From IMG/VR virus record IMGVR_UViG_2667527666_000008: a stretch of 33,255 nucleotides of DNA, one strand, 5' to 3'. The notes beneath the pieces were generated by a model that was not told where the DNA came from, made no database searches, and saw only the letters and a program-made list of their open reading frames with translations. Below, in pieces: positions 20,046 through 21,020 of this stretch (position 1 is the stretch's first letter; the number at the start of each line of letters is the position of its first letter). The translations under genes and the position numbers were made by a program. The DNA is from a virus. Taxonomy: Duplodnaviria > Heunggongvirae > Uroviricota > Caudoviricetes.

Positions 20046-20060
20046 CACTTATTTTCCCTG

Positions 20061-20084
20061 GCTCGCTTTTGCGGGCTTTTTTTT
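20061..20084 (+). terminator. Putative terminator after the tRNA cluster
   Basis: GCTCGC-tttt-GCGGGC (one G-U pair) followed by T8. Confidence 0.5.
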
Positions 20085-20090
20085 AAATGT

Positions 20091-20304
20091 CTCACAATTC
20101 AGGCGGTTGACTGTTGTCTGGTTTGCGGGGAGTTTGTTAAAAGAAACTGGCATGGTGAATCCCCCTGTGCGGAGGGGCAATCAGCGAGTAGGTATATGGG
20201 ATAATCGCGGATTCAGGTGCTGGTACTGAATTCACCGGGAGGCACCCGGCACCATGCAATGGCACATAGCGCCACTCTCCAGCCCCTCTCCGGAGGGGCT
20301 TTTC
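20091..20304 (+). repeat. Structured non-coding unit, copy 1 (ends in terminator GCCCCTCTCCGGAGGGGC-TTTT)
   Basis: Shares ordered blocks with copy 2: CTCACAATTCAG, TTGAC.GTTG, TTTGTTAAAA, CATGGTGAATCCCCCTG.GCGGAGGGGC, CACCGGGAGGCACCCGGCACCATG and the terminal hairpin. Confidence 0.6.
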
Positions 20305-20494
20305 TGTGCCGGATACATCACAGTTTCTGGAACCTTAGGTACTACAGTATCAGTCAGGGTGCTATATTTTCAGATGTGATGAAAGCCTGTCAGCAGGCAG
20401 GGCGTATCGGAAATGACCCAGTAGAGAAAACGTTGACTCAGATACCGGTGCTGAGTTACCGGGAAACCGGCATCACATGACCGCTATCCTTCCA

Positions 20495-20521
20495 GGCCCA
20501 TCCGCTCCGGTGGGCCTTTTT
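20495..20521 (+). terminator. Putative intrinsic terminator between the two repeat units
   Basis: GGCCCA...TGGGCC hairpin followed by TTTTT. Confidence 0.45.
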
Positions 20522-20558
20522 ACTGCAGAAAACAGGTTCCCCGTTAAATGCTATGTTG

Positions 20559-20792
20559 CTCACAATTCAGTAAGTTGACAGTTGCCTGTCAGACTGGGCA
20601 TTTGTTAAAAAAATTTCGCATGGTGAATCCCCCTGAGCGGAGGGGCGACTGGTGACGGTATAATCTCTGATTATCAAAACGAGAATGACGCGGGTTTAGT
20701 GGCACCGGGCTGAACTCACCGGGAGGCACCCGGCACCATGTGCATGATGATACAGATACGCGGCTTTAGCCCCTCTCCGGAGGGGCTTTCTT
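20559..20792 (+). repeat. Structured non-coding unit, copy 2 (contains a perfect TATAAT; same terminal hairpin)
   Basis: Same conserved blocks as copy 1; perfect TATAAT hexamer in 'GGTGACGGTATAATCT'; ends in GCCCCTCTCCGGAGGGGC-TTTCTT. Confidence 0.6.
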
Positions 20793-21020
20793 ATGGACAA
20801 AAAAAGCCCGCGCTGGGAGACGCGGGCGGCAAGGAATAAACAATAAAACGTGAAGTAATATTTCAGCTGGCGAATAATACCCCATAGTAATCACTCTGCG
20901 CAACTGCGCGGTCTTTTTCGAATTGCGGGCTGTAGTCTCCCTTCTGCCATTGTCCTGTAACTTCCGGACTTCAGCCTGCTCCTTATCTGACTCACAACAT
21001 TATCCCGCCCGGGAGGATTC

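Follow-up and report, generated by a model that had tools for sequence, protein, structure and literature searches.

What is encoded in the roughly 1 kb that separates the tRNA genes from the esterase gene of this prophage, if not protein? The window, by which we mean the whole 33,255-nucleotide stretch analysed here, is an E. coli lambdoid prophage with the gene order Q, tRNAs, the units described below, SASA (NanS-p) esterase, holin and lysozyme. The units occupy its "moron" site, bordered upstream by the tRNAs that come after Q and downstream by the NanS-p esterase and lysis genes. The original prediction recognised two paralogous units here and offered two readings of them, a pair of small RNA genes or a duplicated late-promoter/attenuator element in control of the lysis operon. 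The upstream boundary of the array is the intrinsic terminator of the tRNA-Ile2/Arg/Arg cluster (20060..20085, plus strand), which a terminator scan places at a hairpin (20060-20077; GGCTCGC-TTTT-GCGGGCT) followed by T8. An identical hairpin follows the tRNAs of the Stx2a phage Stx2_95, where the next gene is stx2A, and Stx2 phages carry stx2AB at the position that the units hold in the window. The region is rich in such signals, with 12 terminator-like sites between 19000 and 21600 compared with 2.9 +/- 1.7 in shuffled sequences.

The two units are real and lie far beyond chance expectation. They share a direct repeat of 88 nt (20091-20178 and 20559-20646, 80% identity), another of 31 nt (20226-20256 and 20710-20740, 97% identity) and, as had been noticed originally, an identical terminator, which is a 22-nt block (20281-20302 and 20768-20789); their global identity is 71%. 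A covariance-model search of both units, which had been proposed as a check, returns full-length matches to the Rfam family STnc100 (RF02076) at model positions 1-206, for unit 1 at 20121-20311 (136.3 bits, E=4e-30) and for unit 2 at 20589-20798 (165.4 bits, E=1e-37), well above the curated gathering cut-off of 47 bits for this model. The units are copies of STnc100, a catalogued sRNA family of E. coli and Salmonella prophages. Of 5426 complete E. coli genomes, 2870 contain RF02076 matches, with a median of two and up to 14 places each; 303 phage records, most of them from Stx phages, have matches too. The array as it stands in the window is found at 100% identity in E. coli ML35, VR50 and 14EC047. 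Tandem arrays of two to four units are found in about 13 of 97 viral contigs. The finding is in this sense already known and largely ordinary: a known family at a known hot spot.

The array, however, holds three tandem units rather than two. What had been read as a spacer with further terminators is a diverged third copy, unit B, whose RNA of about 150 nt would span 20374..20522 on the plus strand. Its putative promoter module (20317..20373), read from sequence, comprises a degenerate upstream box ATCACAGTTTCTGG at 20317-20330 and an extended -10-like element TGcTATATT at 20360-20368, and the spacing from the module to the base of the closing helix P1 equals that of units 1 and 2. In the predicted minimum free energy (MFE) fold, P1 pairs AUGUGAUG (20374-20381) with CAUCACAU (20471-20478) and encloses P2 (GCCUG/CAGGC), P5 (UGACUCAG/CUGAGUUA) and P6 (CCGG-GAAA-CCGG); the linker (20479-20493) is unpaired and leads into the terminator (20494-20517), which is followed by U5. 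This fold has the architecture of units 1 and 2 (z=-2.8; none of 200 shuffles folds as well), and all helices are retained through compensatory changes despite the divergence. Indeed, each of the three units is predicted to fold on its own into the RF02076 consensus of closing helix, internal hairpins and terminator hairpin. Unit B also recurs between unit-1-type and unit-2-type copies in nine other viral contigs. Its match to RF02076 (30.1 bits, E=6e-4) lies under the gathering cut-off, so that unit B is not a member by the score criterion alone. Our own model was trained on an alignment that included unit B, which inflates the 66 bits it gives to this unit; for this reason we count only the Rfam score and the independent fold.

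Each cassette appears to consist of a promoter module, a 5' domain of about 105-125 nt, a short copy-specific linker and an intrinsic terminator. The putative promoter module of unit 1 (20091..20149, plus strand), defined by conserved blocks and a PasD2-like geometry, has the upstream box CTCACAATTCAG at 20091-20102, TTGACT at 20107-20112, a -35-like TTGTCT at 20114-20119 and, after an 18-nt spacer, an extended -10-like TGtTAAAAG at 20135-20143. Unit 2 has the equivalent module (20559..20617, plus strand), with the box at 20559-20570, TTGACA at 20575-20580, a -35-like TTGCCT at 20582-20587, again an 18-nt spacer and an extended -10-like TGtTAAAAA at 20603-20611; in phage Stx2_95, the STnc100 copy that follows stx2B is preceded by a near-identical sequence. 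By eye, the box CTCACAATTCAG gives no convincing match to a CRP-type or other operator. A perfect TATAAT had originally been listed as a promoter-like hexamer of unit 2, but it lies at 20659-20664, inside the transcribed variable hairpin P3, and is therefore not placed as the promoter of this unit.

Downstream of these modules, the RNA of unit 1 would extend over about 155 nt (20150..20304, plus strand; 152.6 bits with our own model R1, in addition to the Rfam score). In its predicted MFE fold, P1 pairs 20150-20157 with 20250-20257 and encloses P2, P3, P5 and P6, followed by the linker (20258-20280) and a terminator (20281-20300) that runs into UUUUC. For unit 2 the RNA would be about 174 nt (20618..20791, plus strand; 152.8 bits with R1), with P1 predicted to form between 20618-20625 and 20734-20741, the linker at 20741-20767 and the terminator at 20768-20787 followed by UUUCUU. 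As candidate seeds, the linkers of units B and 2 are accessible, being unpaired in the predicted folds, and that of unit 1 lies partly in a 4-bp hairpin. The start sites are putative, and the geometry of unit 1 matches that of PasD2, an sRNA of EPEC E2348/69 whose 5' end in RNA-seq is the G of GCAUGG. The Rfam model begins 29 nt upstream of the inferred start, so the TTTGTTAAAA block could be part of the RNA instead of a -10 element, and the -10-like hexamers of units 1 and 2 are without the usual final T. The terminator hairpins are strong, with 8-9 pairs, and their tails are short (UUUUC in unit 1, UUUUU in unit B, UUUCUU in unit 2). In units 1 and 2 the tail is on the short side, whether for efficient termination or for binding of Hfq at the 3' end, where other members have U6-7.

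We surveyed 96 unique units from viral contigs, collected with the motif GCATGGTGAATCCNCCT. Across 596 Gb of genome contigs, almost all of the matches to this motif that were listed are chance occurrences in unrelated phyla, a motif of 16 specified bases being too short for a search space of that size. The upstream box and the TTTGTTAAAA block are conserved in most of the 96 units, and in 89 of them GGAGG is followed by AUG 4-11 nt downstream. The 5' domain folds into five helices, with the closing P1 enclosing P2, P3, P5 and P6. When 30 diverse units are aligned with MAFFT, 94.9% of cells are paired and 13 pairs change on both sides, compared with 5.6 +/- 1.2 in shuffled alignments (0/500 reach this number) and at most four when the partners are slid. 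In a model-fitted alignment of 80 distinct units, 31 of the 37 pairs show two-sided changes. Against this background of covarying helices, GUGAAU, UCACC and the P6 loop AGGCA are near-invariant across divergent members. The 'CATGGTGAATCCCCC..GGAGGGGC' hairpin and the 'CACCGGGAGGCACCCGGCACCATG' block of the original prediction are conserved as described, but they are two sides of a single folded domain made of P1 with the hairpins P2 and P6. The linker is hypervariable, with roughly ten sequence types carried on an otherwise conserved scaffold. The similar arms of P2 and the terminator in units 1 and 2 had suggested strand swapping between them, as in an attenuator switch; we dropped this idea because PasD-type members carry an unrelated terminator.

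The cassettes can be compared with PasD1 and PasD2 of EPEC E2348/69. These RNAs share the 5' domain of the window units (GCAUGGUGAAUCC..., GGGAGGC..CCAUGC), a length of about 170 nt and the start-site geometry, and their seed lies at the position of the linker. PasD2, like the window array, is placed directly upstream of the SASA esterase gene, at a distance of 87 nt in E2348/69. PasD differs in its promoter module, in a longer linker with the seed UGUGAG and in its terminator. Alignment of the units with PasD1 and PasD2 matches the conserved 5' blocks and finds the linkers and terminators unrelated; the PasD loci score under the RF02076 cut-off. UGUGAG, which pairs with CUCACA in PasD targets, is absent from the linkers of units 1, B and 2, and alignment with the PasA region of E2348/69 finds no PasA homologue after the esterase gene in the window. 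A common ancestor of PasD and STnc100 has been proposed (bioRxiv 10.64898/2026.05.13.724894). While the covarying 5' domain stays fixed, members of the family diversify through exchange of the promoter, the linker and the terminator.

On sequence grounds, unit 2 is the orthologue of EcOnc27/sRNA103, the STnc100 copy just after stx2B, with which it has promoter, scaffold, linker type and terminator in common. The Stx2_95 copy (L245, 2661-2843) scores 154 bits and has a linker closely related to that of unit 2. Each has pR' on one side and the esterase and lysis genes on the other, and each has a convergent sRNA partner. The window prophage, unlike the Stx2 phages, carries no stx; units 1 and B hold the position that stx2AB takes in Stx2_95, where the unit 2 orthologue follows stx2B. 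EcOnc27/sRNA103 has been crosslinked to Hfq (Hfq-CRAC), detected on Northern blots and assigned to a convergent sRNA dyad 3' of stx2B (PMC4104026, PMC7873438); the effects that sRNA103 has on fimZ and espA have been seen only when it is overexpressed. Variants at +90 and +103 after stx2B have been associated with HUS (PMC12711010), and by our own count on Stx2_95, which may be off by one base, they map to the TGT before the -10 and to the T-run before +1, respectively.

Facing unit 2 is a gene of another sRNA family on the minus strand (20980..20799), 95% identical over 241 nt, promoter included, to the EPEC locus 'E2348C_1409.E2348C_1408.IGR' and homologous also to EHEC EcOnc08/21/42. It has the seed CCUUGCC and a terminator at 20827..20806 followed by U7. 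The EPEC RNA is 182 nt long, with RIL-seq targets that include the 5'UTRs of cfa and dppA. A promoter scan finds the promoter-like site ATGCCA-17-GATAAT at 20999..21027 on the minus strand, conserved in the EPEC homologue, which overlaps the esterase start codon on the other strand and would serve as the promoter of this gene. Unit 2 and the minus-strand sRNA form a convergent pair. This arrangement recalls the moron-site dyads AsxR/EcOnc27 and AgvB/EcOnc06 (Tree et al. 2014), where, likewise, the genes of a plus-strand STnc100-type sRNA and of a minus-strand sRNA converge with their terminators next to each other, in the stretch that runs from the late promoter to the lysis genes. The anti-sRNAs AsxR and AgvB are 51-60 nt long, whereas the window partner is about 180 nt and of another family, and the plus side of the window is a triple array where the dyads have a single gene. 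AsxR and AgvB were rejected as the convergent partner, with no match to RF02703 or RF02702 up to E=5 in 19700-23400, and Esr41 was likewise ruled out by the lack of an Rfam match.

We conclude that this 1 kb is probably an sRNA gene cluster, made of three STnc100/PasD-family genes and a convergent minus-strand sRNA, whose products would be Hfq-associated and trans-acting with the linkers as seeds. The suggestion of a pair of small RNA genes is supported as to kind, the family being STnc100, and short as to number, with three genes and a convergent fourth of another family. Hfq association, trans action and a seed role of the linker are the most likely function of the window RNAs on the evidence of homologues, which have been reported as discrete, Hfq-bound transcripts. 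PasD1 and PasD2 of EPEC are 172-173 nt long, depend on Hfq for stability and have their seed in the linker position (PMC8550237). EDL933 carries 11 STnc100 copies, nearly all with RNA-seq reads, and STnc100_4 has been detected there by Northern blot (PMC5331693). Each STnc100-type gene would stand alone as a cassette, driven by a sigma-70-type extended -10 promoter of its own; the RNAs would be made in the lysogen, bind Hfq and base-pair in trans through the variable linker, and the three paralogues, with three linkers, would act on different targets. During lytic growth the array terminators would lie inside the Q-antiterminated late transcript and be read through.

The late transcript leads to the alternative that we consider unlikely but the best of those weighed, namely that the units act mainly in cis, as a terminator stack that, in the lysogen, shields the esterase and lysis genes against transcription coming from the tRNAs and sRNAs, lets only Q-modified polymerase pass and yields the short RNAs as by-products with no function in trans. 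Immediately after the Q gene (16963-17658) comes a promoter-like TTGCAA-17-TATATT (17642-17670), followed by a strong terminator (17705-17728) with a T-run, and this pair (17642-17733) is the expected place of pR'-tR', 2.4 kb upstream of the units. With pR'-tR' there, late transcription must cross the array, and four terminator-like hairpins stand in series on the plus strand between the tRNAs and the esterase, at 20060, 20281, 20494 and 20768. The three of the array and the hairpin at 20060-20077 thus lie on the path from pR' to the esterase and lysis genes, and we infer that Q-modified polymerase has to read through them. Units 1 and 2, with their weak U-tails, may have leaky terminators, and such leakiness would account for the stacking. 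A terminator, however, needs neither a covarying 5' domain of about 105-125 nt nor a conserved promoter module, the cassette is found singly after stx2B, and homologues are abundant, Hfq-bound and endowed with many RIL-seq partners. A terminator role in cis and an sRNA role in trans are not mutually exclusive.

Somewhat less likely still is the reading in which the 5' domain is the functional part, through protein or ribosome binding or through processing or stability, with linker and terminator as accessories; the GGAGG, exposed in the P6 loop, could then hold 30S subunits or an RNA-binding protein. The near-invariance of GUGAAU, UCACC and AGGCA among covarying helices is in keeping with this, as is the frequent GGAGG with AUG noted above, and some EDL933 STnc100 copies have ribosome-footprint/transcript ratios of up to 3.2 (PMC5331693). 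Against it, unit B has exchanged the AGGCA loop for GAAA and kept the fold, the domain has no known binding partner, and RIL-seq puts the PasD pairing site in the linker. The copy described next, in which compensated helices persist with no terminator between DicF and dicB, would favour a function of the domain itself, but the models that find it are related and the Rfam match there is below the cut-off.

That copy of the 5' domain, at 4527..4348, scores 52.6 bits with our own model and 31.1 bits with the Rfam model, the latter value under the cut-off and the two models being related. Its helices are kept by compensatory changes, and there is a second example with a different P3. A link between the dicF-dicB spacer and the STnc100 5' domain was not found in the literature searched, and the observation of the domain between DicF and dicB may be new.

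The 5' domain is conserved far beyond what a protective hairpin needs, and base-pairing by the linker may therefore not be the whole function. We tentatively suggest, as a possibility that we hold less firmly than the sRNA cluster itself, that the domain is an RNA module of lambdoid prophages that functions autonomously in at least two settings, at the 5' ends of late-region sRNAs and in dicBF before the dicB start codon. A protein or the ribosome might dock at the invariant GGAGGCA loop, or else the module might govern how the sequence 3' of it is processed, stabilised or translated.

We regard it as very improbable that the units are Q-dependent late promoters or attenuators of the pR'/qut type, duplicated before the lysis operon. 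The units do lie upstream of the lysis genes, and their layout, in which a promoter-like module leads into a transcript that ends at a terminator after about 150-175 nt, has a superficial likeness to lambda pR'-6S RNA-tR'. Like the window units, lambda 6S RNA and StxS combine a promoter with a short terminated RNA in a lambdoid late region, but they start at pR' after Q and end at tR', whereas the units stand apart from that site as cassettes of their own, 2.4 kb downstream. In the window, the place directly after Q is taken by a promoter and terminator pair, and between it and the units lie two protein-coding genes, a fragment of a methylase gene and three tRNAs; the late-promoter reading is thus not supported. 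Moreover, the unit of Stx2 phages comes after stx2AB, genes whose own transcription starts at pR'; some family members have a PasD-type promoter module, which is quite different, and others form arrays of as many as four units; and homologues are expressed in uninduced lysogens. What survives of the original late-promoter/attenuator proposal is the probable position of the terminators in the path of the late transcript.

Small proteins translated from the AUG in the 3' strand of P1, after the GGAGG of the P6 loop, can be dismissed as the least probable reading, for despite that recurrent GGAGG-AUG arrangement and the ribosome footprints on some EDL933 copies (PMC5331693), the frame passes the terminator without a stop in nearly all variants, the predicted peptides differ wholly between linker types, a frame-shifting indel separates PasD1 from PasD2, the AUG is base-paired in P1 with covarying pairing, and the ATG frames in the 5' part of the two units, of 24 and 11 codons, are unrelated. 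The units have no conserved ORF, in line with the original view of the region as non-coding.

Since the sRNA family was already catalogued from prophages and the site was a known hot spot, this analysis adds little to what is known. It does illustrate how, in a toxin-free relative of the Stx phages, additional sRNA genes occupy the stx insertion site. More than half of the complete E. coli genomes have this family, which adjoins the Shiga toxin genes, and variants just upstream of the toxin-adjacent copy have been linked to clinical outcome. The diverged copy that keeps the fold, together with the occurrence of the same fold before the cell-division inhibitor gene dicB, may offer experimental handles on the function of the conserved domain.

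The 975-bp region at 20046-21020, in which the original prediction placed two repeated non-coding units, contains members of an RNA family that is already catalogued. A whole-window Rfam scan matches both unit 1 (20091-20304) and unit 2 (20559-20791), which lie on the plus strand, to the full length of RF02076, 'Gammaproteobacterial sRNA STnc100' (136.3 and 165.4 bits, respectively; cut-off 47). The proposed repetition is borne out: the units are 71% identical overall, with an 88-nt block at 80% identity (20091-20178 and 20559-20646), a 31-nt block at 97% identity (20226-20256 and 20710-20740) and, as also proposed, the same terminator, whose 22-nt block is identical in the two. 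Terminator-like sites are four times commoner in 19000-21600 than in shuffled sequence. STnc100 is a multi-copy prophage RNA with 11 copies in EDL933, nearly all covered by RNA-seq reads and one confirmed by Northern blot (PMC5331693). The EPEC sRNAs PasD1 and PasD2, for which a common ancestor with STnc100 has been proposed (bioRxiv 10.64898/2026.05.13.724894, a 2026 preprint), are Hfq-dependent, Northern-verified and 172-173 nt long, with a predicted seed immediately before the terminator (PMC8550237). The units prove real and structured, yet neither their family nor the hot spot they occupy is new.

Further terminators had been predicted between the two units. One is present on the plus strand at 20494-20517, followed by U5, but the spacer is itself a third, diverged family member (unit B, ~20374-20522), making three units rather than two. 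With relaxed thresholds, Rfam places RF02076 at 20350-20523 (30.1 bits, E=6e-4, below the cut-off of 47). Every element of units 1 and 2 is kept in unit B with altered sequence: the closing helix P1 is AUGUGAUG/CAUCACAU instead of GCAUGGUG/CACCAUGC, and among the enclosed hairpins P2 is GCCUG/CAGGC instead of CCCCU/AGGGG, P5 is UGACUCAG/CUGAGUUA and P6 is CCGG-GAAA-CCGG. Folded alone, unit B adopts the architecture of units 1 and 2, and it folds better than any of 200 shuffled sequences. It also retains the upstream box in degenerate form (ATCACAGTTTCTGG), together with a good extended -10 (TGcTATATT) whose placement would start transcription at the base of P1. Nine other viral contigs share this three-unit array, and about 13 of 97 viral contigs have between two and four units in tandem. 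We further note that contig IMGVR_UViG_2861053794_000003 (L127, 2270-3352) carries four tandem units; in one of these P1 has become AUAUGGCG/CGCCAUAU and P5 differs markedly, so that arrays can exceed that of the window in both length and divergence.

Alignment of 96 unique units from a motif scan of viral contigs reveals a modular cassette of putative promoter module, conserved 5' domain, hypervariable linker and terminator. The promoter module comes in two types, swapped between otherwise similar bodies: the common type has CTCACAATTCAG, then GTTGACAGTTGTCTG, an 18-nt spacer and TGtTAAAAG, and the PasD type has TTGACT, then TTTATTAAAAA. Most family members conserve the upstream box CTCACAATTCAG, which can be made out even in unit B; in the window it lies on the plus strand at 20091-20102, 20317-20330 (the degenerate copy of unit B) and 20559-20570, roughly -59 to -48 from the inferred RNA start. 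Its core, CUCACA, is identical to the motif published as the target of the PasD seed, possibly by coincidence. Within the 5' domain, P1 encloses P2, P3 (variable in length and sequence), P5 and P6, and hardly any variation occurs in GUGAAU, UCACC and the P6 loop AGGCA. Linkers range from 23 to 60 nt in roughly ten sequence types, occupy the position of the PasD seed and differ among units 1, B and 2. In 89 of the 96 units a Shine-Dalgarno-like GGAGG in the P6 loop is followed 4-11 nt downstream by an AUG in the P1 3' strand (20240-20256 in unit 1 and 20724-20740 in unit 2, plus strand). A peptide from this AUG is unlikely, because the reading frames continue beyond the terminator; published ribosome profiling reports footprints on some STnc100 copies (PMC5331693).

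The structure is supported by covariation. Among 30 diverse units aligned with MAFFT, 94.9% of cells pair and 13 pairs have changed on both sides; column shuffles give 5.6 +/- 1.2 such pairs (none of 500 reaching the observed value), and sliding the partners by 1-3 columns gives at most four. P1, P2, the P3 base, P5 and the terminator also emerge independently from RNAalifold. When a covariance model derived from the 30-unit alignment was used to align 80 distinct units, double changes appeared in 31 of 37 pairs, a count biased towards the structure to which these units were fitted.

The RNA-seq 5' end of PasD2 is the G of GCAUGG, 7 nt past TAAAAA (PMC8550237). By this geometry, transcripts would start near 20150 (unit 1), 20375 (unit B) and 20618 (unit 2), with probable lengths of ~155, ~150 and ~174 nt. 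The TTTGTTAAAA block might be transcribed rather than serve as promoter, since the Rfam model begins 29 nt upstream of the inferred start. HUS-associated variants published at +90 and +103 after stx2B (PMC12711010) map to the TGT before the -10 and the T-run before +1, by our own count on the Stx2a phage Stx2_95, which may be one base off. These positions fit a regulatory role of the stretch, whether promoter or transcribed.

The region is the 'moron' site of a lambdoid prophage, with the late promoter on one side and lysis genes on the other. This follows from the three tRNAs upstream (19796-20045, ARAGORN) and the order annotated in ML35: RusA, antiterminator Q, Ser/Thr kinase, PP2C phosphatase, truncated DNA methylase gene, tRNA-Ile(CAU), two tRNA-Arg, the region, a SASA-family (NanS-p type) esterase, holin and lysozyme. 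Many E. coli strains, ML35 and VR50 among them, carry the region with 100% identity in chromosomal prophage DNA, and 2870 of 5426 complete E. coli genomes have some match (median 2, maximum 14 places per genome).

The alternative that the units are late promoters is not borne out. The Q gene ends at 17658, and a promoter-like site (TTGCAA-17-TATATT, 17642-17670, plus strand) is followed after ~35 nt by a strong plus-strand terminator (17705-17728 and T-run). This pair, spanning 17642-17733, has the arrangement expected of pR'-tR' and would yield a short StxS-like or 6S-like transcript of ~55 nt. Since the units are located 2.4 kb further downstream, and past stx2AB in Stx phages, they are not the late promoter. 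Their terminators do stand in the path of late transcription, which makes a secondary role as insulators plausible.

Stx2_95 has the order methylase, three tRNAs, the same tRNA terminator as the window, stx2A, stx2B, one STnc100 unit (154 bits with our model) and the esterase gene yjhS. Unit 1 and the sequence after it take the place of stx2AB in the toxin phage. The STnc100 copy of Stx2 phages lies ~75 nt after stx2B (PMC12370729) and overlaps EcOnc27 (sRNA103 in EDL933), an sRNA crosslinked to Hfq (PMC12711010). Unit 2 is the orthologue of EcOnc27/sRNA103, because the Stx2_95 copy resembles it closely in upstream sequence and linker. Upstream of the tRNAs, the window has only a C-terminal methylase fragment (19420-19746), with the kinase and phosphatase pair (17730-19309) between it and Q, whereas Stx2_95 has a longer methylase gene directly before the tRNAs, which suggests an insertion or recombination event.

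On the minus strand, an sRNA gene (20980..20799; promoter-like site 20999-21027) diverges from the esterase gene and converges on unit 2, terminator facing terminator. Over 241 nt, including the promoter, it shares 95% identity with the EPEC locus E2348C_1409.E2348C_1408.IGR, which encodes a 182-nt RIL-seq sRNA with seed CCUUGCC and EHEC homologues EcOnc08/21/42. An AsxR/AgvB type was excluded by the lack of an Rfam match. The layout is that of published sRNA dyads: EcOnc27 and its antisense AsxR are one of many convergent pairs 3' of pR' in at least eight Sakai prophages (Tree et al.; PMC4104026, PMC7873438). With the three plus-strand units, four sRNA genes appear to occupy the whole ~1 kb.

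Other Rfam matches above cut-off are sok antitoxin RNA (12664-12839, plus strand, 120 bits), the ALIL frameshift pseudoknot of an IS3-type element (10418-10534, minus strand, 120 bits) and DicF (4546-4597, minus strand, 77 bits). The spacer between DicF (4597-4546) and the dicB ORF (4362-4174) holds an STnc100-type 5' domain lacking the terminator (4527..4348, minus strand), which scores 52.6 bits with our covariance model, built with this sequence left out, and 31.1 bits with RF02076 (E=6e-5, below cut-off). Its helices, P1 GAUGCGGUG/CACUGCAUC, P5 GGCGUUAA/UUAACGUC and P6 CCUGG-AGGCA-CCAGG, are maintained through compensatory changes, and the domain ends ~30 nt upstream of the dicB start codon. 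In a second example, from a viral contig, P3 differs and P1 is Watson-Crick throughout. Of 5426 complete E. coli genomes, 4073 contain the spacer. In the literature searched, dicF, dicB and STnc100 are named together only in a general review of sRNA families, and the domain between DicF and dicB may be a new observation.

Across the family the 5' domain is strongly conserved. Judging from the homologues rather than from the window locus itself, the most likely mechanism is Hfq-assisted base-pairing through the copy-specific linker.
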